From: Escherichia coli
GTDB taxonomy: Bacteria > Pseudomonadota > Gammaproteobacteria > Enterobacterales > Enterobacteriaceae
Assembly (NCBI RefSeq): GCF_050920415.1
Contig: NZ_CP169309.1
Length of the DNA: 64,000 nt
Reading direction: 5' to 3' (one strand)
Shown in pieces: positions 32,236 through 46,741 of this stretch (the first letter of the stretch is position 1; every line of letters begins with the position of its first letter). A program made the translations under genes and the position numbers. The notes beneath the pieces were generated by a model. The model was given only the letters and a program-made list of their open reading frames with translations, had not been told where the DNA came from and did no database searches.

Positions 32236-33735
32236 ATGCTAAATTTATTTGTTGGCCTTGATATATACACAGGGCTTTTGTTATTACTTGCTCTGGCATT
32301 TGTGTTGTTCTACGAAGCAATCAATGGTTTTCATGACACGGCGAATGCGGTGGCAACCGTTATTTATACTCGTGCCATGCAGCCACAGCTTGCCGTGGTG
32401 ATGGCGGCATTTTTTAACTTTTTTGGCGTATTGCTAGGCGGACTTAGCGTTGCCTATGCCATTGTCCATATGTTGCCAACCGATTTGTTGCTGAATATGG
32501 GGTCAACTCACGGCCTGGCGATGGTCTTTTCCATGCTGCTGGCGGCGATTATCTGGAACCTGGGAACGTGGTTCTTTGGTTTACCGGCCTCCAGTTCGCA
32601 TACCTTGATTGGTGCGATTATCGGCATCGGTTTAACCAACGCGCTTTTAACCGGCTCATCGGTGATGGATGCGTTAAACCTGCGTGAAGTGACCAAAATT
32701 TTCTCCTCGCTGATTGTTTCCCCTATCGTCGGCCTGGTCATTGCGGGAGGCCTGATATTCCTGCTGCGCCGCTACTGGAGCGGGACGAAAAAGCGTGACC
32801 GTATTCACCGCATTCCGGAAGATCGCAAAAAGAAAAAAGGCAAACGTAAGCCACCATTCTGGACGCGTATTGCGCTGATTGTTTCCGCTGCGGGCGTGGC
32901 GTTTTCGCACGGCGCGAACGACGGGCAGAAAGGGATCGGACTGGTGATGCTGGTACTGGTGGGGATTGCTCCTGCTGGTTTCGTCGTCAATATGAATGCG
33001 TCCGGCTATGAAATTACCCGTACCCGCGATGCCGTCACCAACTTTGAACACTATCTGCAACAGCATCCTGAACTGCCGCAGAAGTTGATTGCGATGGAAC
33101 CTCCATTGCCTGCGGCATCGACTGATGGCACGCAAGTAACGGAGTTTCATTGTCATCCGGCAAATACCTTTGATGCGATTGCGCGCGTTAAAACGATGTT
33201 GCCAGGTAATATGGAAAGCTACGAGCCGTTAAGCGTGAGTCAGCGCAGCCAGCTGCGCCGCATTATGCTGTGCATCTCTGATACCTCTGCGAAGCTGGCG
33301 AAACTGCCAGGCGTCAGTAAAGAAGATCAGAACCTGCTGAAAAAACTGCGCAGCGATATGTTAAGCACCATTGAGTACGCTCCGGTGTGGATCATCATGG
33401 CGGTAGCACTGGCGCTCGGCATTGGCACCATGATTGGCTGGCGTCGTGTAGCGATGACCATCGGTGAGAAGATTGGTAAGCGCGGCATGACGTATGCGCA
33501 AGGCATGGCGGCACAAATGACGGCGGCAGTGTCTATCGGCCTTGCCAGTTATATTGGGATGCCCGTCTCCACAACGCACGTCCTCTCGTCTGCGGTAGCA
33601 GGGACGATGGTGGTGGACGGCGGTGGGTTACAGCGTAAAACGGTAACCAGCATCCTGATGGCGTGGGTGTTTACTTTACCGGCGGCGATTTTTCTGTCTG
33701 GTGGGTTGTACTGGATAGCATTGCAGTTGATTTAA
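32236..33735 (+). CDS. pitB: Low-affinity inorganic phosphate transporter PitB
   Basis: 499-aa polytopic ORF; PiT family GANDGQKG motif; synteny. Confidence 0.92.
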
Positions 33736-33744
33736 CCTTCCTGA

Positions 33745-33781
33745 AAATGCCCGGTCCTGACGATCGGGCATTTCCATTTTT
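33745..33781. terminator. Bidirectional rho-independent terminator between pitB and yghT
   Basis: 9-bp stem aaatgcccg / cgggcattt followed by T run. Confidence 0.6.
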
Positions 33782-33783
33782 GA

Positions 33784-34476
33784 CTAGTGATAACCACACG
33801 CGGTCATAAAATCCGTAATCGCTTTTTCTGCATCAACCAGCACCTTTTCCAGTGGCTGATTGGCGTCGATATCAACCAGTTGTGCACCACCAAAGGTTAA
33901 CTGTGGCGTTATGGCAATCTTTCTCGCCAGCGATTCCCGTTTATGGTCGGGTTTACGCGCGCAGGCAACTTCAAGGTCAACATTGAGTTTGATAACCAGA
34001 TCAGGCTTATGGCTCGCCATCCAGTGAAATGCTTTACGTTCCTGGCTTGCCAGCCATGAGACAAACCGGCCGCCTTCAACGTTAGGTGGGAACACCGTAC
34101 CATCGTAAGCGCCAGGAATTTGGTCCTGAGGATAACGATCGGTTAAGACAATCAGCCCGCGACGACGACAGGCGAGCATATGACGAAAGCGTAACAGTCG
34201 GCGGGCGACGAAAGCGGTGATCACCAGGGCCGGAACCGGACCCGGCAATTTTTTTGCCGTTTTCACTTCATTTTTTTCAATAGTCTTGTGCAGAGACTTT
34301 CCCATCAACGGTAATTTTGTCACTGCACGACCGACATTTCCGGCCTGTTTTCCTAAATGAACTCTTTCGGCAGCACCATATTTTTCGACAACGGTAATAA
34401 GATGTTCACACACCGTTGACTTGCCTGAACCATCGCTACCAATAACGGCAATTAATGGAGGTGTTATTGACTGCAT
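33784..34476 (-). CDS. yghT: P-loop kinase-like protein (Walker [14 protein letters not shown] motif; dTMP-kinase-like fold inferred)
   Basis: 230-aa ORF; paralogous to the next two genes. Confidence 0.85.
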
Positions 34477-34649
34477 GAATATATCCTTAAATTTAAATAT
34501 CCATCCAAAATATTTATTTGGTTAATATGTTTTTATGAAAGCGTAATTCAGGTCAATGTCACAATTAACCATTGTCACAATAAGGTTGAACGGATATTCT
34601 GAGCACGGACCACGTAATATTCAATACATTATTTGCTGCCGGGTTTTTC

Positions 34650-35363
34650 GTGAATCAACGTAATATGTCAATAATTAATTCCACGCCAGTGCGTGTTATT
34701 GCCATTGTAGGATGTGATGGTTCAGGTAAATCGACCCTCACGGCAAGCCTGGTAAATGAACTGGCAGCAACAATGCCAACAGAACACATTTATCTCGGGC
34801 AATCGTCCGGGCGAATTGGCGAATGGATTTCACAGCTCCCTGTTATTGGCGCACCTTTTGGGCGTTATCTGCGAAGTAAAGCGGCACATGTGCACGAAAA
34901 GCCCTCCACACCGCCTGGCAATATTACTGCGCTGGTTATCTATCTGCTTTCCTGCTGGCGGGCGTATAAGTTTCGCAAAATGTTGTGTAAAAGCCAGCAA
35001 GGCTATCTGCTCATCACCGACCGCTACCCGCAGGTTGAAGTGCCGGGTTTTCGCTTTGATGGCCCGCAACTGGCAAAAAACACGGGCGGTAACGGCTGGA
35101 TAAAAATGTTAAGACAGCGCGAGCTCAAACTTTACCAATGGATGGCGTCTTATTTGCCCGTATTGTTGATTCGTCTTGGCATTGATGAACAAACCGCGTT
35201 TGCGCGTAAACCTGACCACCAACTGGCGGCGTTACAGGAAAAAATCGCTGTTACGCCGCAACTGACATTCAATGGTGCAAAGATCCTTGAACTGGATGGT
35301 CGGCAACCCGCCGATGAAATTCTGCAAGCGTCACTACGCGCAATTCACGCCGCGCTTTCCTGA
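34650..35363 (+). CDS. yghS: P-loop kinase-like protein
   Basis: 237-aa ORF; GCDGSGKST and ITDRYP motifs. Confidence 0.85.
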   Translation: MNQRNMSIINSTPVRVIAIVGCDGSGKSTLTASLVNELAATMPTEHIYLGQSSGRIGEWISQLPVIGAPFGRYLRSKAAHVHEKPSTPPGNITALVIYLLSCWRAYKFRKMLCKSQQGYLLITDRYPQVEVPGFRFDGPQLAKNTGGNGWIKMLRQRELKLYQWMASYLPVLLIRLGIDEQTAFARKPDHQLAALQEKIAVTPQLTFNGAKILELDGRQPADEILQASLRAIHAALS

Positions 35364-35393
35364 TCACCAAATGGATAGGGGATGATTTAACGA

Positions 35394-36152
35394 ATGGATG
35401 CACTACAAACACAAACTGTTAATAGTACAACCGCGCCGCAGCCCAACTACATTCCGGGGCTGATTGCGGTGGTCGGGTGTGATGGCACCGGTAAATCCAC
35501 ACTGACCACTGACCTGGTGAAATCGCTGCAACAACACTGGCAAACCGAGCGCCGCTATCTGGGGCTGCTCTCCGGCGAAGACGGCGACAAAATCAAACGG
35601 TTGCCGCTCGTTGGCGTCTGGCTGGAACGGCGACTGGCGGCCAAATCCTCGAAAACCCAAAGCATGAAAACCAAATCTCCGGCGCTATGGGCGGCGGTGA
35701 TTATGTACTGCTTCTCGCTGCGAAGAATGGCGAATCTACGCAAGGTTCAGCGACTGGCGCAAAGTGGCGTTCTGGTGGTCAGCGATCGCTTCCCGCAGGC
35801 TGAAATTTCGGGCTTTTATTATGACGGACCGGGGATTGGCATCGAGCGTGCGACCGGGAAAATCAGCATGTTTCTGGCCCAGCGCGAACGGCGTTTATAC
35901 CAAAAAATGGCGCAATACCGTCCTGAATTAATTATTCGTTTGGGGATTGATATTGATACTGCCATCTCCCGCAAGCCTGACCATGACTATGCCGAGCTGC
36001 AGGACAAAATCGGTGTCATGTCGACGATTGGCTATAACGGCACAAAAATTCTTGAGATTGATTCCAGAGCGCCCTACAGCGAAGTGCTGGAACAGGCACA
36101 GAAGGCGGTTTCTCTGGTTGCAATCGTTTCTGACCGCCGAAGTTTAACTTAA
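35394..36152 (+). CDS. yghR: P-loop kinase-like protein
   Basis: 252-aa ORF; GCDGTGKST and VSDRFP motifs. Confidence 0.85.
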   Translation: MDALQTQTVNSTTAPQPNYIPGLIAVVGCDGTGKSTLTTDLVKSLQQHWQTERRYLGLLSGEDGDKIKRLPLVGVWLERRLAAKSSKTQSMKTKSPALWAAVIMYCFSLRRMANLRKVQRLAQSGVLVVSDRFPQAEISGFYYDGPGIGIERATGKISMFLAQRERRLYQKMAQYRPELIIRLGIDIDTAISRKPDHDYAELQDKIGVMSTIGYNGTKILEIDSRAPYSEVLEQAQKAVSLVAIVSDRRSLT

Positions 36153-36197
36153 GGTTGGCGGGATACTTTTTATTATCAACGATAAGGTCAGGCTGAA

Positions 36198-37547
36198 TTG
36201 GCGGGGTTTAACATCAAACATTGGTTTGCAGATGGCGCGTTTCGCACCATTATTCGCAATAGCGCCTGGTTAGGCTCCAGTAATGTCGTGAGCGCTTTGC
36301 TGGGTCTGTTGGCGCTCTCGTGTGCCGGTAAAGGGATGACGCCCGCCATGTTTGGCGTACTGGTGATTGTGCAATCGTACGCCAAGTCGATCAGCGATTT
36401 TATTAAGTTTCAGACATGGCAGCTGGTGGTTCAGTACGGAACGCCAGCCTTGACCAATAATAATCCGCAGCAATTTCGCAATGTCGTCTCATTTTCCTTC
36501 TCGTTGGATATCGTCAGCGGCGCGGTGGCGATTGTCGGCGGCATTGCCTTACTCCCTTTTCTTTCCCATTCATTAGGTCTGGATGACCAAAGCTTTTGGC
36601 TGGCAGCGCTGTATTGCACGCTCATTCCTTCAATGGCTTCCTCCACACCGACCGGCATTCTGCGTGCAGTAGATCGCTTCGATTTGATTGCTGTACAGCA
36701 GGCGACGAAACCTTTTCTGCGCGCAGCGGGGAGCGTCGTAGCCTGGTATTTTGATTTTGGTTTTGCGGGTTTTGTTATTGCCTGGTACGCATCGAATCTG
36801 GTTGGCGGCACCATGTACTGGTGGTTTGCCGCGCGCGAATTACGCCGCAGAAATATCCATAACGCCTTCAAATTGAATCTGTTTGAGTCTGCCCGACACA
36901 TTAAAGGCGCGTGGAGTTTTGTCTGGTCAACCAACATTGCCCACTCCATCTGGTCGGCACGTAACTCGTGCAGCACAGTGTTGGTGGGGATCGTGTTAGG
37001 ACCCGCTGCCGCCGGGTTATTTAAAATCGCCATGACATTCTTCGATGCCGCCGGAACGCCAGCGGGTTTACTGGGCAAAAGTTTTTACCCAGAGGTGATG
37101 CGTTTAGATCCGCGTACCACCAGACCGTGGTTGTTAGGCGTGAAGTCCGGTTTACTGGCGGGCGGAATCGGTATTCTGGTGGCGCTCGCGGTGTTGATCG
37201 TCGGCAAGCCGCTCATTTCGCTGGTGTTTGGCGTTAAGTATCTCGAAGCGTATGACCTGATTCAGGTGATGCTTGGCGCAATTGTGATTTCGATGCTGGG
37301 CTTCCCACAGGAGTCATTGCTATTGATGGCGGGAAAACAGCGCGCTTTTCTCGTGGCGCAAACCATCGCCTCAATCGGCTACATCGTATTGCTGTTCATG
37401 TTCTGTCATCTGTTTGGCGTGCTGGGGGCTGCATTTGCTTACTTCGGTGGGCAATGTCTGGATGTGGTGCTCTCGTTAATTCCAACCTTAAAGGCATTTT
37501 TTCAGCGCCATTCCTTGCTTTATAACGCAGCCGGAGAGAAATCCTGA
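36198..37547 (+). CDS. yghQ: Polytopic inner-membrane protein, MOP/Wzx-like flippase family (putative lipid or polysaccharide flippase)
   Basis: 449-aa hydrophobic ORF; ORF-track start is TTG, so true start uncertain; synteny with yghRST. Confidence 0.75.
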   Translation: MAGFNIKHWFADGAFRTIIRNSAWLGSSNVVSALLGLLALSCAGKGMTPAMFGVLVIVQSYAKSISDFIKFQTWQLVVQYGTPALTNNNPQQFRNVVSFSFSLDIVSGAVAIVGGIALLPFLSHSLGLDDQSFWLAALYCTLIPSMASSTPTGILRAVDRFDLIAVQQATKPFLRAAGSVVAWYFDFGFAGFVIAWYASNLVGGTMYWWFAARELRRRNIHNAFKLNLFESARHIKGAWSFVWSTNIAHSIWSARNSCSTVLVGIVLGPAAAGLFKIAMTFFDAAGTPAGLLGKSFYPEVMRLDPRTTRPWLLGVKSGLLAGGIGILVALAVLIVGKPLISLVFGVKYLEAYDLIQVMLGAIVISMLGFPQESLLLMAGKQRAFLVAQTIASIGYIVLLFMFCHLFGVLGAAFAYFGGQCLDVVLSLIPTLKAFFQRHSLLYNAAGEKS

Positions 37548-38371
37548 TGATGAGAAAATATTTCCCGCTTGAGGCGAGCGAGCGTCTATTTATTGCAGTT
37601 GAAGAAGATGATGTCGTTGATGCGCAGGTCAGTTTACCGCCGACTATCGCAACAGGTTGTACCACCGAAATCATTCATGATAATTACGCGTTATGCCTGC
37701 AATTCTGGCTGAATGGCGTTGATCGTCAGGAATTACTGCGTTTAATCCACAAACAAGCCAAAGGCGAGGGGCTTACGGCTGACGAGCGTAAACAGTTTAA
37801 ATATATGCGGGCGCGTTATAAGCATCTACGTTTTGCCCAACGGTTGTATTTAAAAAAGCATCAGGCCGGATTTTTATTTGGCAAAACGACCGTTTTTCTT
37901 GGACGTTTTCAGGACGGCTTTCGTAACGGTAAGAAAAATATTGTGTCGTTTTACGGCAACCTTTTACGGATTTATTTAAGCTCTCCGGTCTAGTTGTTGG
38001 TGAACTATTCATTACGCCATAGCCAGTTAGAAAGCGTAAGCGGTTTTATTGCCTATCGGCAAAAGCAAATGCACCTCCTGAAAGAGATTATTGCCAAACC
38101 ACGGCTAACTGGCAGGGAATTTCATGATGTACGAAAAATAATCAGCCAGCAGGTTTCTTATTACGACACCCTAAGATCGCTTGATCCTGAAAATAAAGAA
38201 GCGTTACAGATTTCCCGCTTCCTCGCCGCCATTAATGGCCTGATGGGGGATAAACACGACGACATGGTGGCGGATGATATGGAAAACCGCCAGTCGTATG
38301 ATGCACCGATGGCGCTGGATAGCGATATTCGTCAGCGCTTAGAACTGCTGATTTCGCGTTTTCCGCTATAA
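37547..38371 (+). pseudogene. Hypothetical protein reading frame (275 codons) interrupted by a single in-frame TAG at 37991-37993; either a nonsense pseudogene or two adjacent ORFs
   Basis: ORF-track ORFs 37547-37993 and 37994-38371 are in the same frame and contiguous; start ATG overlaps the yghQ stop (TGATG). Confidence 0.4.
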
Positions 38372-38379
38372 CCGGAGCA

Positions 38380-38943
38380 ATGATGTCATCTCGTTTGATT
38401 ATTGCGCTGATTATCATGCTCTTAGCCCCGGGTGTGCAGGCGCACAATTTCGTCACTGGTAAAACGGTTACCCCTGTTTATATCCAGGAAGGCGGCGAGC
38501 TGCTTCTGAATAGCGACGACGAAATTCACTACCAAAAGTGGAACAGCACACAGCTGGCGGGAAAAGTCCGCATTATTCAGTATATCGCCGGGCGTAAGTC
38601 GGCGAAGAAAAAGAACTCACTGTTAATTAAAGCGGTTGAAGCGGCAAACTTTCCGCAGGATCGTTTTCAGCCCACCACCATTGTGAACACCGATGATGCC
38701 ATCTTTGGTACTGGCTATTTTGTCGTTGGCAAAATCGAAAAAAATAAACGCCGCTATCCGTGGGCGCAATTCGTTATTGACGGCAATGGACAGGGACGCG
38801 TTGTCTGGCGGTTGCCGGAGCAGAGTTCAACCATTCTGGTGCTGAATAAAGCCGGGCAAATTCAGTGGGCAAAGGACGGCAGCCTGACGCCGGAAGAGGT
38901 AGATCATGTCATTGCGCTGGCGCAGAAGCTGATCAATGAATAA
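38380..38943 (+). CDS. YtfJ-family periplasmic protein (signal peptide)
   Basis: 187-aa ORF; N-terminal signal MMSSRLIIALIIMLLAPGVQA; resembles E. coli YtfJ as I recall it. Confidence 0.6.
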   Translation: MMSSRLIIALIIMLLAPGVQAHNFVTGKTVTPVYIQEGGELLLNSDDEIHYQKWNSTQLAGKVRIIQYIAGRKSAKKKNSLLIKAVEAANFPQDRFQPTTIVNTDDAIFGTGYFVVGKIEKNKRRYPWAQFVIDGNGQGRVVWRLPEQSSTILVLNKAGQIQWAKDGSLTPEEVDHVIALAQKLINE

Positions 38944-38973
38944 AAAACTCAAAGGATTGAGGGCGTTAGTGAG

Positions 38974-40044
38974 ATGAAGCTGGTTGAACACTACATCATG
39001 CGTGGTACGCGCCGTCTGGTGCTGATTATCGTCGGTTTTCTGATCTTTATTTTCGCCAGCTACTCCGCACAGCGTTATCTGACCGAAGCGGCAAATGGGA
39101 CATTAGCTCTTGATGTTGTGCTGGATATTGTTTTCTACAAGGTGCTGATTGCACTGGAGATGTTGTTACCTGTTGGACTGTATGTGTCAGTTGGCGTGAC
39201 GCTAGGGCAGATGTATACCGACTCGGAAATTACCGCTATTTCTGCGGCGGGGGGGAGTCCGGGACGCTTGTACAAAGCCGTTCTTTATCTGGCGATACCG
39301 CTAAGTATTTTTGTCACCCTTCTGTCGATGTATGGTCGTCCGTGGGCTTATGCGCAGATTTATCAACTGGAGCAACAGTCGCAGTCGGAGCTGGATGTTC
39401 GCCAGTTGCGGGCAAAGAAATTTAACACTAACGATAACGGACGAATGATCCTTTCGCAGACGGTTGATCAGGATAATAATCGCCTGACTGACGTGCTGAT
39501 TTATACTTCTACTGCCAATCGAACCCGTATTTTCCGCGCCCGTTCGGTTGATGTAGTTGACCCATCACCCGAGAAACCGACCGTTATGTTGCATAACGGG
39601 ACCGCCTATCTTCTCGATCATCAGGGGCGTGACGACAACGAACAGATCTACCGTAATCTGCAATTGCATCTGAATCCGCTGGATCAAAGCCCTAACGTCA
39701 AACGCAAAGCAAAATCGGTCACGGAGCTGGCGCGCTCCGCCTTTCCTGCCGATCATGCCGAACTGCAATGGCGACAAAGCCGTGGCCTGACAGCATTGTT
39801 GATGGCGCTGCTGGCCATTTCATTAAGTCGGGTAAAACCGCGGCAAGGGCGATTTTCAACGTTATTGCCACTGACGTTGCTGTTTGTTGCCATTTTTTAT
39901 GGCGGCGACGTCTGCCGTACGCTGGTGGCTAACGGCGCGATTCCCCTCATTCCTGGTTTGTGGTTAGTACCCGGACTCATGCTAATGGGCCTGCTGATGC
40001 TGGTCGCACGCGACTTCTCTTTGCTGCAGAAATTTTCCCGATGA
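38974..40044 (+). CDS. LptF-like permease (YjgP/YjgQ family) paralog
   Basis: 356-aa ORF; N-terminal TM then large periplasmic segment then C-terminal TMs, the LptF/LptG architecture. Confidence 0.7.
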   Translation: MKLVEHYIMRGTRRLVLIIVGFLIFIFASYSAQRYLTEAANGTLALDVVLDIVFYKVLIALEMLLPVGLYVSVGVTLGQMYTDSEITAISAAGGSPGRLYKAVLYLAIPLSIFVTLLSMYGRPWAYAQIYQLEQQSQSELDVRQLRAKKFNTNDNGRMILSQTVDQDNNRLTDVLIYTSTANRTRIFRARSVDVVDPSPEKPTVMLHNGTAYLLDHQGRDDNEQIYRNLQLHLNPLDQSPNVKRKAKSVTELARSAFPADHAELQWRQSRGLTALLMALLAISLSRVKPRQGRFSTLLPLTLLFVAIFYGGDVCRTLVANGAIPLIPGLWLVPGLMLMGLLMLVARDFSLLQKFSR

Positions 40045-41120
40045 ATGTTTTCAGTCGCTATTTAATTCGTCATCTCTTTCTCGGTTTTGCCGCCGCCGCA
40101 GGGCTATTGCTGCCGCTCTTTACCACCTTCAACCTGATTAACGAACTGGATGATGTCAGCCCGGGTGGTTATCGCTGGACTCAGGCGGTGCTGGTGGTGC
40201 TGATGACCTTACCGCGCACACTGGTCGAACTTTCGCCGTTTATCGCCTTATTGGGAGGGATTGTCGGCCTGGGGCAGTTATCGAAAAACAGTGAGCTTAC
40301 CGCCATTCGCAGCACGGGGTTTTCTATCTTCCGTATTGCACTGGTGGCGCTGGTTGCCGGGATATTGTGGACTGTTTCATTAGGCACGATAGATGAGTGG
40401 GTGGCGTCGCCATTGCAGCAACAGGCGCTGCAAATCAAATCGACTGCCACTGCGTTGGGGGAGGACGATGACATTACCGGCAATATGCTGTGGGCCAGGC
40501 GTGGTAATGAATTTGTGACGGTGAAATCGCTGAACGAGCAGGGCCAGCCGGTGGGCGTGGAGATATTTCATTACCGCGACGATCTCTCGCTCGAATCCTA
40601 CATTTATGCACGCAGTGCCACCATTGAAGACGACAAAACGTGGATCCTGCATGGTGTGAATCATAAAAAATGGCTGAATGGCAAAGAAACGCTGGAAACA
40701 TCTGATAATCTTGCCTGGCAATCGGCCTTCACCAGTATGAATCTTGAAGAGTTATCGATGCCGGGAAATACTTTTTCTGTCCGTCAACTTAATCATTACA
40801 TCCATTATTTGCAGGAAACCGGGCAACCCAGCAGCGAATACCGCTTTGCACTGTGGGAAAAACTGGGACAACCCATCTTGACCCTTGCGATGATTTTGCT
40901 GGCTGTGCCGTTTACCTTTAGTGCCCCGCGTTCGCCTGGGATGGGTAGCCGTCTCGCTGTAGGCGTCATCGTGGGGTTACTCACCTGGAGCAGCTATCAA
41001 ATCATGGTCAATCTGGGATTGCTATTTGCGTTGAGCGCACCTGTTACCGCGCTCGGTTTACCGATAGCGTTTATGCTGGTGGCGTTGAGCCTGGTGTATT
41101 GGTATGACAGTCAACATTAA
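40041..41120 (+). CDS. LptG-like permease (YjgP/YjgQ family) paralog
   Basis: Start at ATGA overlap with upstream gene (MNVFSRYLIRHL); same architecture; 359 aa. Confidence 0.7.
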   Translation: MNVFSRYLIRHLFLGFAAAAGLLLPLFTTFNLINELDDVSPGGYRWTQAVLVVLMTLPRTLVELSPFIALLGGIVGLGQLSKNSELTAIRSTGFSIFRIALVALVAGILWTVSLGTIDEWVASPLQQQALQIKSTATALGEDDDITGNMLWARRGNEFVTVKSLNEQGQPVGVEIFHYRDDLSLESYIYARSATIEDDKTWILHGVNHKKWLNGKETLETSDNLAWQSAFTSMNLEELSMPGNTFSVRQLNHYIHYLQETGQPSSEYRFALWEKLGQPILTLAMILLAVPFTFSAPRSPGMGSRLAVGVIVGLLTWSSYQIMVNLGLLFALSAPVTALGLPIAFMLVALSLVYWYDSQH

Positions 41121-41154
41121 ACCCGCCGTGGCGCAGCACCACAGCGGGCTCACA

Positions 41155-42327
41155 TTACTGCTTCAGAGTAGCAAATGCCTGAATGATGGCATCGATTTGC
41201 TCACGAGTGTGGGCAGCGTTTACGCTACAGCGCAGCAGCGTGATGCCTGCAGGCGCGGCAGGTGGCAGGATAAGATTCACATAAACGCCCAGCGAAATAA
41301 GCTCGCGCCAGATGCGTAAACCTTCCTCTTTCGAACCGATTATTACTGGCACTACCGGGCTAATATGTGAACTTAACTCGTAACCCAGTTTTTGCAGACC
41401 GTCATACAGATGGCTGGCGTTATCCATCAGCTTTTGCCGCAACTCTGGTTGTGAGGCAATGGTTCTTAACGACGAGCGCACGGTCGCAATGCAGGACGGA
41501 GAAGGAGAGGCGGTAAAAATATACGGGCGGCTGCCGTAGCGCAGCACTTCCATCGCTTCCGAACCGACAGCAAAACCGCCAATCGAGGCCAGACTTTTAC
41601 TGAAAGTACCAACGATAATATCCACATCATCTTCAACGCCAACGGCTTCAGCCAGTCCGCGCCCCGTTGCGCCTAACACGCCAAACGAATGCGCTTCATC
41701 GACAATCAAATAACCACCGAGACGACGTTTGATATCAACAATTTCCGCCAGCGGCGCAACGTCACCGAGCATACTGTAGATGCCTTCAACGATGATAATC
41801 GCCTCTTTTGCCCGTTCACCGAGGCGAACCATGCGCCGTTCCAGATCTTTAGCATCGTTATGGCGGAAACGAATAATTTCCGCTCCACCGAGAGAACAGG
41901 CGTCATAAATACTGGCGTGGCTATCGGCATCCAGTAACACCACGGCGTTATGGTCGGCAAGTGCGCTGATGACACCTAAATTAGCGGTATAACCGGTTGA
42001 AAAAACGATAGCGGTAGGGCGATTGAAAAACTCGGCAATCTCTTTCTCTAACGCCAGATGTGGCGCATAGCTGCCATTAGCCATACGAGAACCGGTAGTG
42101 CCGGTGCCTTGTGCCGCTAATGCTGCCTGACCTTCGGTGATGGCATCATGATTGAAAGTTAAACCGAGATAATTATTAGTCCCGGCCAGAATCACTTTTT
42201 TATTGCCGATACGGCCTTCAGTGGCGGAGTACACTTCATCAATACAGGTACCAAACGGCGTTAATCCGTTGTCACTAAATTGCAGTCGCTCGCCAGCAAG
42301 GCGCGCATATTTATCGTATAGCCCCAT
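41155..42327 (-). CDS. PLP-dependent alpha-oxoamine synthase (serine palmitoyltransferase / BioF / Kbl family)
   Basis: 390-aa ORF; conserved VDEAHSFGVLG and PLP-lysine GTFSKSL motifs. Confidence 0.8.
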   Translation of the reverse strand: MGLYDKYARLAGERLQFSDNGLTPFGTCIDEVYSATEGRIGNKKVILAGTNNYLGLTFNHDAITEGQAALAAQGTGTTGSRMANGSYAPHLALEKEIAEFFNRPTAIVFSTGYTANLGVISALADHNAVVLLDADSHASIYDACSLGGAEIIRFRHNDAKDLERRMVRLGERAKEAIIIVEGIYSMLGDVAPLAEIVDIKRRLGGYLIVDEAHSFGVLGATGRGLAEAVGVEDDVDIIVGTFSKSLASIGGFAVGSEAMEVLRYGSRPYIFTASPSPSCIATVRSSLRTIASQPELRQKLMDNASHLYDGLQKLGYELSSHISPVVPVIIGSKEEGLRIWRELISLGVYVNLILPPAAPAGITLLRCSVNAAHTREQIDAIIQAFATLKQ

Positions 42328-42575
42328 TATTTATTCTCCAGCCATGGAAGTAGAGTTTCCATTAATTGCGCAGGGGTTTTGACATCCAGCAGAATATTAA
42401 TAGGAATGGAAATATCGAATCTGTCTTCCAGCATCATTAAGAGATCCATCACTTTGATCGACTCCAGGCCAAGATCGTTGACGAGATCGCTGTCGGGCTT
42501 AATTTCCACACCGTTTTCGACCAAATCCTGTAAACAGGAAAGGATGTAATCCATTACTATTTCACGATTTACCAT
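42327..42575 (-). CDS. Acyl carrier protein (dedicated, not housekeeping acpP)
   Basis: 82-aa acidic ORF with phosphopantetheine-attachment-like motif DLGLESIKVMDL. Confidence 0.75.
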   Translation of the reverse strand: MVNREIVMDYILSCLQDLVENGVEIKPDSDLVNDLGLESIKVMDLLMMLEDRFDISIPINILLDVKTPAQLMETLLPWLENK

Positions 42576-42606
42576 AGAAACGTTAACACACCTTTAAACA
42601 AGACAA

Positions 42607-43521
42607 TCAAAATAGCCCGCTGCGTAATGCGTGTTCCAGGCTAATCCCGGGAAACCAATTAATATCTTCAGAAATACGGTTATTACTTGCTGACCAGTCG
42701 GCGTGGGTTAATTCACGGATTTTCGAGCGGGTCAGCATAGGTTCTTTACCTGCCAGGCGACTCAACGCGGTACTGATATCCGCAAGGCAGGTGAGTACCG
42801 ACAGAGGAATACCAACCATTCGAACGGAACCGCAACGGGCGTCGGCGGCAAGTTGCTGTACGCGTTGCCAGTCATAGCCGCCGGCGACGCCATCGCATAA
42901 TTCATAGGTTTGCGTTTGTACAGTTTCGGCGCTTAACCACTGCCCCACGGCTTGCGCGAAATCGGTGACGTGCAGGAAAGAGAGCTGTGTATCTGGCGCA
43001 CCAAGTCGTGGCAGCAGGCCGCGCAGCATCCAGCCAAACAGCGGTTTTAACTCTTTATCGCCGGGACCATACACGGCTGTCGGGCGAAAAATGCCCAGCG
43101 TAATTTCGTCAGCCATTGCGGTCAGTCGTTGTTCGGCGACGTGTTTGGAATTTGCGTACCAGGAGAGTTCGGGATGGCGCGCCGCCAGCGAAGAGATAAA
43201 CAGAAAACGTTGGCAAAAGCCGCTCTCTTTTGCCGCTTGCATCAGGCGCAGGCTGCCGTCAACGTTACAGCGGGTAAAAATCTCTTCTTTGTGTCCGCGC
43301 ACTTGCCCGGCGCAATGGACCACCGCGCTGGCTCCGGCAACCAGTTCGCTAAGCGAATGTGTATCTTCCAGCGAACCGCGCACCCAGATGAGATTATCAT
43401 TGACGTGAGCGCGGGCAGTACGCGTCAATGCGCGAACGTGAAAGCCGCGGGCGAGCAGGTTATCGATAATATATTTACCGATAAACCCGGTAGCGCCCGT
43501 CACCGCGACAGTTTGATTCAT
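42607..43521 (-). CDS. NAD(P)-dependent epimerase/dehydratase-family (extended SDR) oxidoreductase; candidate 3-keto reductase
   Basis: 304-aa ORF; N-terminal Rossmann motif VTGATGFIG. Confidence 0.75.
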   Translation of the reverse strand: MNQTVAVTGATGFIGKYIIDNLLARGFHVRALTRTARAHVNDNLIWVRGSLEDTHSLSELVAGASAVVHCAGQVRGHKEEIFTRCNVDGSLRLMQAAKESGFCQRFLFISSLAARHPELSWYANSKHVAEQRLTAMADEITLGIFRPTAVYGPGDKELKPLFGWMLRGLLPRLGAPDTQLSFLHVTDFAQAVGQWLSAETVQTQTYELCDGVAGGYDWQRVQQLAADARCGSVRMVGIPLSVLTCLADISTALSRLAGKEPMLTRSKIRELTHADWSASNNRISEDINWFPGISLEHALRSGLF

Positions 43522-45236
43522 GCCATGGATTCCTGCACATGAAGGCTTGCAGCATAACGTTTTTTCGCTTCCGCACGGGCAGGCTTGCCGGAGGACGTTC
43601 GGGGAATACTGTGGGGCGGCAACAGATCGATAGCCGCTGTTACGCCAAATTCGCTTTGGATCCGTGCTGCCAGTGCGTGGATAAGCTGCCCACGACGTTC
43701 TTCGTCGCTGATCCTACACTGGATCTGCAAAATGATTTTTTCCTGGGCGGTAACAAAAGCAATCGCATCGCCAGAATGAATTTCCGGTTCCTGTTCCGCA
43801 ATATATTCAATATCCTGCGGCCAGATATTACGGCCACGAATAATAATCAGATCTTTAATGCGCCCGGTGACATACAGATAACCATCCAGCAGATAACCGA
43901 GGTCGCCGGTATCTAACCAGCCCGTCGCGGCAATCTCGTCTTGCGAAACCTGGTCGCCAAAGTAACCGCTCATCAGGCTGGGGCCGGAGATGCAAATATG
44001 GCCTACCACACGTTCCGCGACCGGCATACCTGCTTCATTGCGGATTTCAATGCCATGTTCCGGCAACGCTTTACCGCAGTTGACGAAAGTCGATACGGCG
44101 CGTGTTTCAGCACCCGGCGCGACGGCTTTGCCCTGATATTCAAGGATGTCGCGATCCACTTCGTTAACCACAACCCCGGAGGCTTCATCAGAGAAGCTGA
44201 CAGCCAGCGCATTTTCTGCCAGTCCGTAGCACGGCATGAAAGTTTTATCGTCAAAGTTAACCTGACGGAAACATTCAGCAAATTGGTGGAGTTGTTCTGC
44301 GGAGATGGGTTCTGCGCCAATACCAGCGACGCGCCAGCACGAGAGATCCAGTTCAGCGAGATCTTTTTCATTCACGCGGCGCTGACACAATTCATAGCCA
44401 AACGGCGGCGCGACGGAAACTGTGCCACGATTTTTACTGATCAATTTAAGCCATTGCAGCGGACGCATGGCAAAATCCTGAGTGCGCAAATAATCTACTG
44501 AGAGCTGCGTGGCGACGGGGGTCAGGAGAAAGCCGACCAGTCCCATATCATGGTAGAAAGGCAGCCAGGAGACGCAGCGGTCGCCAGGGCGTAATTTAAT
44601 GCCATCGTGGCTTATAGCACGTAGATTAGCCATCACTTCGCGATGGGTGATAATGACGCCACGGGGAAAACGGGTGCTGCCGGAGGTGTACTGGAGGTAG
44701 GCGATATCGTTCGGAACTGGACGCTGGAGTACAACATCGGCTTCCGGTAATGCCTTAAACCAGGCGTGGCTTAAAACATGTAATTCGGGGTTGTTATGCG
44801 TAGCAGCATTGACCAGTGGCAACCACTCATCACCAGTGATAATGGCTGCGGGCTGGCAACTAGCCAGTAAACCTTGCAGTTTAGCGCTCCAGGAATCCCG
44901 CTGACCGACGCCCATTGGAATCGCTAACGGGACGGCGACTAAGCCGGCATACTGGCAGGCAAAAAAAGCCTCTACAAACCCGCTACTCGTTTCGGCAATC
45001 AGCGCCACGCGATCGCCTTTTTTCAGATTTAGTGATAACAACCGCTTCGCACCAGCTTCGGCACACGCTTTTAACGTCTGATATTCCAGTTGATCTTCAA
45101 GTTGGCAACGTCTGTCATAAAAATTCATTCCGGCGCTACTCAGAGCGGCGTAGTCCAAAGCATCAACCAGCGTTGGAAAATCGGCATAGCGCATAGGTAG
45201 GGAATGCGTAAAGATGTTATTAGACATATACACCAC
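43518..45236 (-). CDS. Fatty acyl-AMP ligase / acyl-ACP synthetase (AMP-binding superfamily)
   Basis: 572-aa ORF; AMP-binding signature YTSGSTRFPRGV; overlaps downstream reductase gene by 4 nt. Confidence 0.8.
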   Translation of the reverse strand: MVYMSNNIFTHSLPMRYADFPTLVDALDYAALSSAGMNFYDRRCQLEDQLEYQTLKACAEAGAKRLLSLNLKKGDRVALIAETSSGFVEAFFACQYAGLVAVPLAIPMGVGQRDSWSAKLQGLLASCQPAAIITGDEWLPLVNAATHNNPELHVLSHAWFKALPEADVVLQRPVPNDIAYLQYTSGSTRFPRGVIITHREVMANLRAISHDGIKLRPGDRCVSWLPFYHDMGLVGFLLTPVATQLSVDYLRTQDFAMRPLQWLKLISKNRGTVSVAPPFGYELCQRRVNEKDLAELDLSCWRVAGIGAEPISAEQLHQFAECFRQVNFDDKTFMPCYGLAENALAVSFSDEASGVVVNEVDRDILEYQGKAVAPGAETRAVSTFVNCGKALPEHGIEIRNEAGMPVAERVVGHICISGPSLMSGYFGDQVSQDEIAATGWLDTGDLGYLLDGYLYVTGRIKDLIIIRGRNIWPQDIEYIAEQEPEIHSGDAIAFVTAQEKIILQIQCRISDEERRGQLIHALAARIQSEFGVTAAIDLLPPHSIPRTSSGKPARAEAKKRYAASLHVQESMA

Positions 45237-45598
45237 GAAAAAAATTGGATATCAGAAATAAAATGACAATAATGCGGTGGATTATATAGGCATAAAAGAT
45301 AAATGAGATAGTATTTTCATCGGTGCGATATTGAACATTGATTTAAATAATAGGTTTGGCTTTGTTGTTTTTATTGTGAATTATATTTAATTTATGAATA
45401 TATTAAGAAGAAGCCTTGTTTGGTTGCCTTAAATCGACAAAAGGCATTGAGGCGCTTCTGTGTAGTCTCTGACCTTATCTTAATTATTAATAAATACTAT
45501 TTATTCTTTGTTTGTATTCTTTGGGTTGATTATTAAGATGCCGTTCGTTGCTGTTGCAATCTGTTTGTCACCGTTAATTATTTGTTATCCACAGAGAT
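45237..45598. promoter_or_regulatory. AT-rich divergent promoter region between the acyl-AMP ligase operon and yghO
   Basis: 362 bp, visibly AT-rich with multiple A/T tracts; flanked by divergently oriented start codons. Confidence 0.45.
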
Positions 45599-46741
45599 AT
45601 GGAATGCGATCTGCTGATGATTAAAATTGAAAAAGTAATTAATAAAAATGACCTTAAGGCATTTATCGCTTTTCCGTCATCACTTTATCCCGATGATCCA
45701 AACTGGATACCCCCTTTGTTCATTGAACGCAGCGAGCATTTGTCGGCGAAGAATCCGGGGACGGACCATATTATCTGGCAGGCGTGGGTAGCAAAAAAAG
45801 CGGGGCAGATAGTCGGGCGGATTACCGCGCAAATCGATACCTTGCACCGCGAGCGTTACGGTGACGATACCGGTCATTTCGGCATGATTGACGCCATTGA
45901 TGATCCGCAGGTTTTTGCCGCGTTGTTTGGCGCAGCGGAAGCGTGGTTGAAGTCACAAGGTGCAAGTAAGATCAGCGGGCCTTTCAGCCTGAATATCAAT
46001 CAGGAAAGCGGATTACTGATTGAAGGTTTCGACACTCCGCCCTGTGCGATGATGCCGCACGGTAAACCGTGGTATGCCGCGCATATTGAACAATTGGGTT
46101 ATCACAAAGGTATTGATTTACTGGCGTGGTGGATGCAACGAACCGATCTCACTTTCTCTCCGGCGCTAAAAAAACTGATGGATCAGGTGCGCAAAAAGGT
46201 GACCATTCGCTGCATCAAGCGCCAGCGGTTTGCCGAAGAGATGCTGATCCTGCGTGAGATTTTCAACTCTGGCTGGCAGCACAACTGGGGATTTGTGCCG
46301 TTTACCGAACATGAATTCGCTACCATGGGCGATCAACTAAAGTATCTGGTACCGGACGATATGATCTACGTCGCCGAGATTGATTCTGCTCCCTGCGCGT
46401 TTATAGTCGGCTTGCCGAACATCAACGAGGCGATTGCCGATCTGAACGGAGCGCTCTTTCCCTTCGGCTGGGCAAAATTGCTGTGGCGCTTAAAAGTCAG
46501 CGGTGTGCGAACTGCGCGAGTGCCGCTGATGGGCGTGCGTGACGAGTATCAGTTCAGCCGCATCGGCCCGGTGATTGCGCTGTTATTGATTGAAGCCTTA
46601 CGCGATCCGTTTGCTCGCCGGAAGATCGATGCGCTGGAAATGTCATGGATCCTCGAAACCAATACAGGCATGAATAACATGCTGGAACGCATTGGAGCGG
46701 AGCCGTACAAGCGTTACCGATTGTATGAAAAGCAGATTTGA
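45599..46741 (+). CDS. yghO: YghO, intact; putative GNAT-like acyltransferase (family assignment tentative)
   Basis: 380-aa uninterrupted ORF; synteny next to glcC; K-12 yghO is an annotated pseudogene as I recall. Confidence 0.7.
   Translation: MECDLLMIKIEKVINKNDLKAFIAFPSSLYPDDPNWIPPLFIERSEHLSAKNPGTDHIIWQAWVAKKAGQIVGRITAQIDTLHRERYGDDTGHFGMIDAIDDPQVFAALFGAAEAWLKSQGASKISGPFSLNINQESGLLIEGFDTPPCAMMPHGKPWYAAHIEQLGYHKGIDLLAWWMQRTDLTFSPALKKLMDQVRKKVTIRCIKRQRFAEEMLILREIFNSGWQHNWGFVPFTEHEFATMGDQLKYLVPDDMIYVAEIDSAPCAFIVGLPNINEAIADLNGALFPFGWAKLLWRLKVSGVRTARVPLMGVRDEYQFSRIGPVIALLLIEALRDPFARRKIDALEMSWILETNTGMNNMLERIGAEPYKRYRLYEKQI

Follow-up and report, generated by a model that had tools for sequence, protein, structure and literature searches.

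A probable sphingolipid locus of Escherichia coli between pitB and glcC, with a candidate head-group and export module

Why should Escherichia coli carry a set of genes that resembles a complete bacterial ceramide pathway? The question is raised by the interval between pitB and glcC in a stretch of 64,000 nucleotides of E. coli DNA (NCBI RefSeq assembly GCF_050920415.1, contig NZ_CP169309.1), referred to here as the window and numbered from its first letter. Thirteen genes fill this interval (Table 1), starting downstream of pitB (32236-33735). A minus-strand operon for an alpha-oxoamine synthase (AOS, gene spt), an acyl carrier protein (ACP), a short-chain dehydrogenase/reductase (SDR) and a ligase converges on the plus-strand genes yghS to lptG2, and yghO is divergent from the former. 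An initial annotation made from the sequence letters had proposed that these convergent operons synthesize and export a ceramide-like lipid, and the gene content, order, strands and coordinates that it gave were all confirmed. Our analysis suggests that the region is very probably the Escherichia version of the proteobacterial sphingolipid locus, a 13-gene unit that would make ceramide, modify its head group and deliver it to the outer membrane. The feature exists as described, and reading it as a sphingolipid locus is correct; the core is known, and the accessory module is undescribed.

The lipid class is indicated by the product of spt, which scored 599.6 bits against the NCBIfam serine palmitoyltransferase (SPT) equivalog NF047599 (cut-off 500) and fell under the cut-offs of the BioF, Kbl, ALAS and CqsA profiles. 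Its nearest solved relatives were bacterial (Sphingomonas) SPTs (2jg2, E 4e-111), and Kbl and BioF structures matched at about 1e-59 to 1e-51. In alignment with S. paucimobilis SPT, residues H137, D210, H213, K244 and R366 correspond to its catalytic residues. Among the observations that, according to the initial annotation, would speak against a sphingolipid pathway are an AOS closest to BioF or Kbl, absence of the AOS catalytic residues, and a different function in the literature. SPT structures were the nearest and the BioF and Kbl cut-offs were failed, the catalytic His, Asp, His, Lys and Arg are conserved on alignment, and the published function is the same, orthologues from strain BL21(DE3) making 3-oxo-sphinganine. 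The sphingolipid interpretation was therefore sustained.

One position differs from the characterized enzyme. Leu354 of Spt sits where S. paucimobilis SPT has Arg378, which we take to contact the serine carboxylate, and all other catalytic residues are kept; the substitution might relate to the use of acyl-ACP instead of acyl-CoA. The same substitution could be read as a sign that the AOS makes another amino-lipid, such as a sulfonolipid of capnine type made from cysteate, a base derived from alanine or glycine, or a signal resembling CAI-1. Alpha-oxoamine synthases are promiscuous, a section of PMC9386255 deals with relaxed SPT substrate specificity, and cysteate-C-fatty acyltransferase (28eh) is among the solved relatives. 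We consider these products highly improbable: cysteate acyltransferase, Kbl, BioF and CqsA matched at E 1e-58 or weaker against 4e-111 for SPT, and the SPT equivalog cut-off was passed but those of the other families were not. Capnine synthesis, which the initial annotation had listed beside sphingolipid synthesis, is unsupported because the best-scoring profile is SPT.

Four further core genes accompany spt. The product of acpR carries PF00550 with the serine of the GLES motif; its gene overlaps the start of spt by one base, and the assembly collection has the exact protein indexed in about 101,000 blocks. The aasR product scored 871 bits against NF006624 (cut-off 600), and that of cerR carries PF01370. 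All five Pfam families predicted by the initial annotation, PF00155, PF00550, PF00501, PF01370 and PF03739 (the last twice), are recorded for these products in sister contigs, together with PF09695 and PF01943/PF13440; these records hold no Pfam match for YghO, the orf274 product, YghS or YghT. The yghO product had no Pfam, NCBIfam or PDB match. Its tentatively proposed kinship, as a GNAT-like protein, with ceramide synthase is in line with Supplementary Table 2 of PMC9386255, where yghO (ECD_02850) has 44% identity to the Caulobacter bacterial ceramide synthase (bCerS) CC_1154 (E 1e-107) and the cerR SDR has 34% identity to Caulobacter CC_1164 (E 7e-38). Furthermore, yghO is present alongside the cluster in every complete enterobacterial locus that we recovered (see below).

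These core enzymes constitute a sphingolipid pathway that is already published and annotated, and this finding is itself not new. The statement in the initial annotation that the locus has no characterized function was mistaken, as the core was published in 2022 (PMC9386255) and RefSeq already names the gene spt. In that paper (Padilla-Gomez et al. 2022, PMC9386255), AasR, AcpR and Spt of E. coli BL21(DE3) (ECD_02851, ECD_02853 and ECD_02854) yield 3-oxo-sphinganine on co-expression, ECD_02853 is 4'-phosphopantetheinylated, AasR supports 3-oxo-sphinganine formation with its cognate AcpR only, and Spt prefers acyl-AcpR to acyl-CoA. The authors also name yghO and the SDR gene epi (ECD_02852) as ceramide synthase and reductase homologues, and give Caulobacter and E. 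coli as the only organisms in which all five dihydroceramide genes cluster. ECD_02850-ECD_02854 are the same five genes (yghO, aasR, epi, acpR, spt) at the same chromosomal site as in the window, and the activities published for BL21(DE3) thus apply directly. The sections consulted do not treat yghT, yghS, yghR, yghQ, orf274, ytfJ2, lptF2 or lptG2, and contain no native E. coli sphingolipid and nothing on how widespread the locus is. Our literature search returned no paper joining the names yghQ, yghR, yghS or yghT with 'sphingolipid'. A paper on an Enterobacter 'SPT' (PMC11413220) was not used, as its genes came from generic BLASTP and were not shown to belong to the same locus.

To place the plus-strand genes, an alignment of orf274 homologues was used to scan one genome per species in GTDB, and each of the 66 loci obtained was scored by tblastn with the 13 E. 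coli proteins, with a 10 kb flank examined on each side. Matches in Enterobacterales spanned about 20 genera, including Escherichia, Pseudocitrobacter, Hafnia, Citrobacter, Shimwellia, Pluralibacter, Serratia, Pantoea, Erwinia, Sodalis, Mangrovibacter, Tatumella, Klebsiella (K. indica), Cedecea, Rosenbergiella and Rahnella. Each enterobacterial locus whose flanks were long enough contained all 13 genes; across loci the genes take at least four orders and lie in differing chromosomal neighbourhoods. Loci of Xanthomonadales (Luteibacter, Rhodanobacter, Dyella) have the order yghT (minus strand), yghS, yghR, aasR, cerR, acpR, spt, yghQ, orf274, in which spt, yghQ and orf274 adjoin one another in the same orientation; these loci lack ytfJ2 and lptF2/lptG2. 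In Sphingomonadales the module consists of two kinase genes, yghQ and orf274 in a compact operon, and spt is absent from the 10 kb flanks, which fits the reported scattering of sphingolipid genes in that order. Gene blocks that survive such shuffling are good evidence of a shared function, and from this comparison together with the structural analysis we infer that the plus-strand genes belong to the same system as the ceramide genes.

This conservation also bears on whether the plus-strand operon and yghT might form an unrelated exporter of polysaccharide or lipopolysaccharide type that merely adjoins the ceramide genes. In the PGAP annotation the permeases appear as lptF and lptG and yghQ bears the name 'lipopolysaccharide biosynthesis protein', and distant relatives of the kinases occur in exopolysaccharide-like clusters with GT4 and Wzy genes, some of them fused to Wzx-type flippases. 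However, the two gene sets stay together across at least four orders and different neighbourhoods, spt, yghQ and orf274 are contiguous and co-directional in Xanthomonadales, the profile scans of the 13 products detected no glycosyltransferase, polymerase or chain-length regulator, and the LptF2/LptG2 pair of Caulobacter is genetically tied to sphingolipid synthesis (bioRxiv 10.64898/2026.04.12.717747). An unrelated exporter is therefore very unlikely, and the reading of the interval as one sphingolipid locus is retained in what follows.

Within this locus, the candidate transporters are of two kinds. YghQ belongs to the Polysacc_synt families (PF01943 and PF13440, on the record of an identical-length product), matches the WzxC equivalog weakly (34 bits, cut-off 273) and is 49% identical to the flippase of a kinase-flippase-CHAD module in a non-enterobacterial contig. 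The LptF-like product scored 323 bits against TIGR04407 (cut-off 230) and the LptG-like product 304 bits against TIGR04408 (cut-off 240), with E 1e-25 for LptF2 against E. coli LptF (6mhu_F) and E 2.5e-40 for LptG2 against E. coli LptG (6mhu_G). The coupling-helix glutamate is retained, 'SEIT' and 'SELT' aligning with 'SEMT' and 'SELV' of the solved LptF and LptG; this is presumably the residue by which LptB docks, E84 in E. coli LptF and E88 in LptG. As lptF2 and lptG2 are missing from K-12, they are dispensable paralogs and not the essential housekeeping LptFG. The 13-gene locus holds no LptB paralog. In Caulobacter, LptF/LptG paralogs lie inside the sphingolipid locus (PMC11324152) and are implicated in sphingolipid export; the two proteins bind each other and the single LptB, their genes can be deleted only without spt or the ceramide kinase, and similar pairs are found in many alpha- and gammaproteobacterial sphingolipid loci (bioRxiv 10.64898/2026.04.12.717747). 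The ytfJ2 product scored 209 bits against TIGR01626 (cut-off 151), with a signal peptide that ends AxA ahead of HNF, and across taxa the gene was found only where lptF2/lptG2 also occur.

The three proteins YghT, YghS and YghR are 32-37% identical to one another and share an invariant Walker A motif, a DR[YF]PQ motif whose DR[YF] follows the third strand, and a basic, lid-like RKPDH segment. The initial annotation was right to call YghR P-loop kinase-like but confined this to YghR, whereas YghS and YghT are its paralogs. The best structural matches of the family were thymidylate kinases, and YghR has a faint PF02223 match. The P-loop, the DRY-type motif and the overall fold are common to these proteins and to the thymidylate kinase / nucleoside-monophosphate kinase fold; unlike thymidylate kinases, the paralogs are three genes in a lipid locus with relatives fused to Wzx flippases. 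Against the dTMP kinase equivalog they scored 24.7-31.3 bits, far under the cut-off of 83.25, so that PGAP is unjustified in naming yghS and yghT 'dTMP kinase'. Two other assignments were rejected: the missing ABC ATPase of LptF2G2, given the thymidylate-kinase fold and the occurrence of these proteins without LptF2G2 in Xanthomonadales and Sphingomonadales, and homology to the Caulobacter ceramide kinase CpgB, which is of the diacylglycerol-kinase (LCB5) family.

A profile of the kinase family matched 2531 cluster representatives. Distant members (P0229, P0258, P0211) form fusions with a GT4 glycosyltransferase or with MOP flippases, to whose C-terminus they are attached, and many family proteins are of about 500 amino acids, with an uncharacterized N-terminal domain of about 260 amino acids before the kinase. 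One such member (contig L016, 5721-12048) clusters with ATP-sulfurylase, sulfotransferase, flippase, GT4 and Wzy genes. The kinase-flippase fusions and shared clusters imply that the pairing of these two protein types is old and general. In Novosphingobium barchaimii (L084, 4869-6910), a PmrA/PmrB-like (QseBC-like) two-component system stands directly upstream of, and divergent from, the kinase-kinase-flippase-CHAD operon, a neighbour that hints at envelope-stress control of the module.

The open reading frame orf274 (product Ybl138) lies downstream of yghQ and is interrupted in the window by the in-frame TAG that the initial annotation had pointed out. The codon differs from the nearest RefSeq genome, NZ_CP169399.1, by one G-to-A change at 37992; codon 149 is TGG there and in strains SE11 and SaT040, and none of the 3661 complete genomes carrying the gene has an exact match to the 101 nt around the TAG. 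It is a private nonsense mutation, or a sequencing error, in a conserved gene. Readthrough or pyrrolysine-type recoding, as the uninterrupted coding sequence in the PGAP annotation could suggest, was rejected, the RefSeq record having TGG at this codon and the window being off by one base. With orf274 cut, the sphingolipid pathway may be impaired in this strain.

The predicted model of Ybl138 is all-alpha and of high confidence (predicted local distance difference test, pLDDT, 92). It was compared with the known CHAD domains of Ricinus communis (6qv5), Streptomyces PptA (6rn5) and E. coli YgiF (5a61), and shows at fold level two helical bundles rich in conserved basic and histidine residues. 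The model thus assigns a CHAD (polyphosphate-binding) fold to Ybl138, a link that holds at the level of the fold only. Relatives with 26-41% identity in Sphingomonas, Zymomonas, Acetobacter, Komagataeibacter, Gluconobacter and Pseudomonas veronii are annotated as CHAD domain-containing proteins; Zymomonas and Gluconobacter are among the sphingolipid-gene carriers compared in PMC9386255. Ybl138 differs from known CHAD proteins in that it stands alone, with no triphosphate tunnel metalloenzyme attached, and is encoded in a lipid locus. No paper tying CHAD domains to sphingolipids was found in the literature search. Pluralibacter gergoviae and a Pluralibacter metagenome-assembled genome (MAG) carry a second CHAD-fold gene (56-59% identity) at an unrelated site with no other locus genes nearby, and two Luteibacter species and a Sphingomonas MAG have two adjacent orf274 matches, which are either separate genes or one split alignment.

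The nature of the head group can be narrowed by comparison with Caulobacter CC_1152-CC_1168, which contains the same five-gene ceramide core, a flippase candidate of Polysacc_synt type like YghQ (CC_1166) and, as in E. coli, a dedicated LptF/LptG paralog pair without an LptB paralog in the locus; Caulobacter LptC2 has no counterpart in the E. coli locus. None of the 13 E. coli products is a diacylglycerol-kinase-type ceramide kinase (CC_1160), a Tam41-like protein (CC_1161), a CDP-alcohol transferase (CC_1159), a phosphoesterase (CC_1158) or a nucleotidyltransferase (CC_1152, CC_1153). The E. coli locus instead has the three thymidylate-kinase-fold proteins, the CHAD-fold protein and the YtfJ-family periplasmic protein. 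Without the enzymes of the CpgA/B/C pathway, the product is unlikely to be ceramide di-phosphoglycerate, and the E. coli head group probably differs from that of Caulobacter. As the Caulobacter head-group enzymes and any glycosyltransferase are absent, the three kinases are the only candidate head-group enzymes, and the head group is most plausibly phosphorylated. Thymidylate kinases phosphorylate a phosphomonoester and CHAD domains bind polyphosphate, and the most economical hypothesis is therefore a mono- or oligo-phosphorylated ceramide. Other lipid-kinase genes occur in or next to related loci: a Sodalis-type contig (L015, 17823-18182) has an extra DgkA-type (DAGK_prokar) gene of 119 amino acids between yghO and the kinases, and in a metagenomic alphaproteobacterium-like contig a DAGK_cat lipid kinase (L018, 15071-16090) and a PMT_2 glycosyltransferase-like gene adjoin the kinase-flippase-CHAD module.

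The following sequence of events would account for the 13 genes. As published for the BL21(DE3) orthologues, AasR adenylates a fatty acid and loads it on AcpR, and Spt condenses acyl-AcpR with L-serine to 3-oxo-sphinganine. By homology to Caulobacter bCerS and CerR, YghO would N-acylate the base and CerR would reduce its 3-keto group, yielding dihydroceramide; which of the two reactions comes first is disputed in the literature. YghT, YghS and YghR may then phosphorylate the head group, as the comparative and structural analyses suggest, and Ybl138, to judge from its CHAD fold, may bind or hand over a phosphate-rich head group. YghQ would flip the lipid to the periplasmic leaflet, LptF2/LptG2 with the housekeeping LptB, as in Caulobacter, would extract it for outer-membrane transport, and the secreted YtfJ2 could be an accessory in this export. 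In its most general form, we tentatively propose an undescribed sphingolipid head-group module, present in Enterobacterales and, with fewer genes, in Xanthomonadales and Sphingomonadales, in which two or three kinases might produce mono- or oligo-phosphorylated ceramide, Ybl138 might pass the head group to YghQ and, in Enterobacterales, a YtfJ protein might aid LptB2F2G2 export; this proposal is possible but considerably less secure than the assignment of the locus to sphingolipids.

Several observations weigh against the reading as a functional ceramide synthesis, modification and export locus. The literature search found no sphingolipid reported from unmodified E. coli, and BL21(DE3) with empty vectors gave no 3-oxo-sphinganine spot in PMC9386255, such that the native locus may be silent in laboratory culture; silencing would fit the AT-rich gap between yghO and aasR (G+C 0.41 in 45000-45999 against about 0.51 in the flanks). 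Scans of the locus for promoters and terminators gave nothing above chance except one terminator-like hairpin between pitB and yghT (33745-33773). The predicted model of YghT is of moderate quality (pLDDT 72). Pfam matched neither Ybl138 nor any of 10 aligned homologues, and a profile of the Ybl138 family found no match among PDB sequences; with both searches failed, a sequence-level tie of orf274 to CHAD was rejected. What the kinases act on, the nature of the head group and the functions of Ybl138 and YtfJ2 are proposed here as hypotheses. Finally, the region has been lost or has decayed more than once within E. coli: in K-12 and its relatives, in O157:H7 ATCC 43888, where only the pitB end remains, and in strain BS-01 (NZ_CP172816.1, 4199-9738), which has an independently decayed copy with fragments 79-88% identical to the window, its flippase, YtfJ, spt and ligase genes frameshifted or truncated and yghT, yghS, yghR and yghO intact. 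These repeated losses imply that the locus is dispensable.

The absence of a native lipid in the literature search and in the empty-vector BL21(DE3) experiment, the AT-rich promoter region, the independent losses and the nonsense codon in the window would together also be consistent with a cryptic or decaying remnant, whose enzymes work if over-expressed but whose native genes are unused, so that no natural sphingolipid is made. The population data make this unlikely. At least 80% of the 14.5 kb region was present in 4051 of 5426 complete E. coli genomes (75%), in which the locus is intact. The ratio of non-synonymous to synonymous substitution rates (dN/dS) was 0.03-0.10 in every locus gene that aligned without gaps, within a few-fold range of the flanking pitB and glcC; yghS had 0.10 and yghR 0.09. 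This comparison covered 10 of the 13 genes within E. coli, against SaT040 (acpR having zero substitutions), and eight of the 13 against E. whittamii, with ytfJ2 and aasR in neither. Moreover, the retention of the same 13 genes through rearrangements across Enterobacterales is not a pattern of decay. A functional sphingolipid locus remains our preferred interpretation.

The K-12 lesion agrees with the initial annotation as regards the IS5 element, the damaged yghO and the eight missing genes, but the extent that it gave, 37547-45236, was too small: IS5 stands in place of window positions 37267-45638, and the deletion starts in yghQ, which loses its last 281 bp, runs through the eight genes and the divergent promoter region, and takes 40 nt from the start of yghO. 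The K-12-type junction was found in 347 of the 5426 complete genomes. One genome labelled 'BL21-RIPL' (NZ_CP083273.1, 6269-7462) has the K-12-type yghQ::IS5 deletion despite its BL21 label. As the BL21(DE3) cluster of the literature is intact (ECD_02850-02854), the record may have a wrong strain label or lineage, or an exchange of the region may have taken place.

Of the 64,000 bases of the window, only six differ from NZ_CP169399.1 (E. coli strain MFDS1022581), and the window therefore comes from a very close sister of that strain. Apart from the change in orf274, the differences lie at 3911, 16732, 29137, 60560 and 62874; they comprise a synonymous change in each of ftsP and yghU, a change of the base just ahead of the start codon of exbB, sslE Thr1293Met and gspC Thr68Ala. 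With two synonymous, two missense and one intergenic change, these five look like natural variation, and artificial mutation of the window was rejected. Horizontal acquisition was likewise rejected, the G+C content of the locus being ordinary (about 0.5). Genomic SELEX (systematic evolution of ligands by exponential enrichment) in K-12 gave a weak FlhDC-binding peak in the divergent yghS/yghT gap (window 34477-34649; PMC9962212). Downstream of the glc operon, positions 56683-64000 hold sslE (a lipoprotein metalloprotease), pppA, gspS2 and the start of the gspC-gspD type II secretion cluster.

Table 1. Genes and other features of the pitB-glcC interval in the 64,000-nucleotide window
Feature	Position	Strand	Description
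yghT	33784-34476	-	Thymidylate-kinase-fold P-loop kinase-like protein, paralog 1; divergent from yghS
yghS	34650-35363	+	P-loop kinase-like paralog 2
yghR	35394-36152	+	P-loop kinase-like paralog 3
yghQ	36198-37547	+	MOP/Wzx-type flippase; full length (449 aa), K-12 copy truncated
orf274 (Ybl138 in UniProt)	37547-38371	+	274 codons; conserved all-alpha protein of predicted CHAD fold, interrupted in the window
Nonsense codon in orf274	37991-37993	+	TGG to TAG, Trp149 to stop
ytfJ2	38383-38943	+	Secreted YtfJ-family protein; second, locus-specific copy
lptF2	38974-40044	+	Divergent paralog of the lipopolysaccharide-export permease LptF
lptG2	40041-41120	+	Divergent paralog of LptG
spt	41155-42327	-	Serine palmitoyltransferase
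acpR	42327-42575	-	Dedicated acyl carrier protein
cerR (epi)	42607-43521	-	Extended-SDR reductase; ceramide reductase homolog
aasR	43518-45227	-	Fatty acyl-AMP ligase, acyl-AcpR synthetase
aasR-yghO divergent intergenic region	45228-45598		AT-rich; both promoters presumed; deleted in K-12
yghO	45599-46741	+	Bacterial ceramide synthase (bCerS / Aca) homolog

For bacterial membrane lipids the organism of reference is E. coli, a species taught to lack sphingolipids. Yet a locus for ceramide synthesis and export is present, intact and maintained by selection, in three quarters of its complete genomes; the K-12 laboratory lineage lost it through an IS5-associated deletion. If the proposed phosphorylated head-group module is true, the outer membrane of most wild E. 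coli would contain an anionic sphingolipid resembling lipid A, one that has gone unseen in K-12 research. Such a lipid, if it exists, would bear on polymyxin susceptibility, the outer-membrane barrier and host recognition of gut E. coli, and on how far K-12 represents the species.

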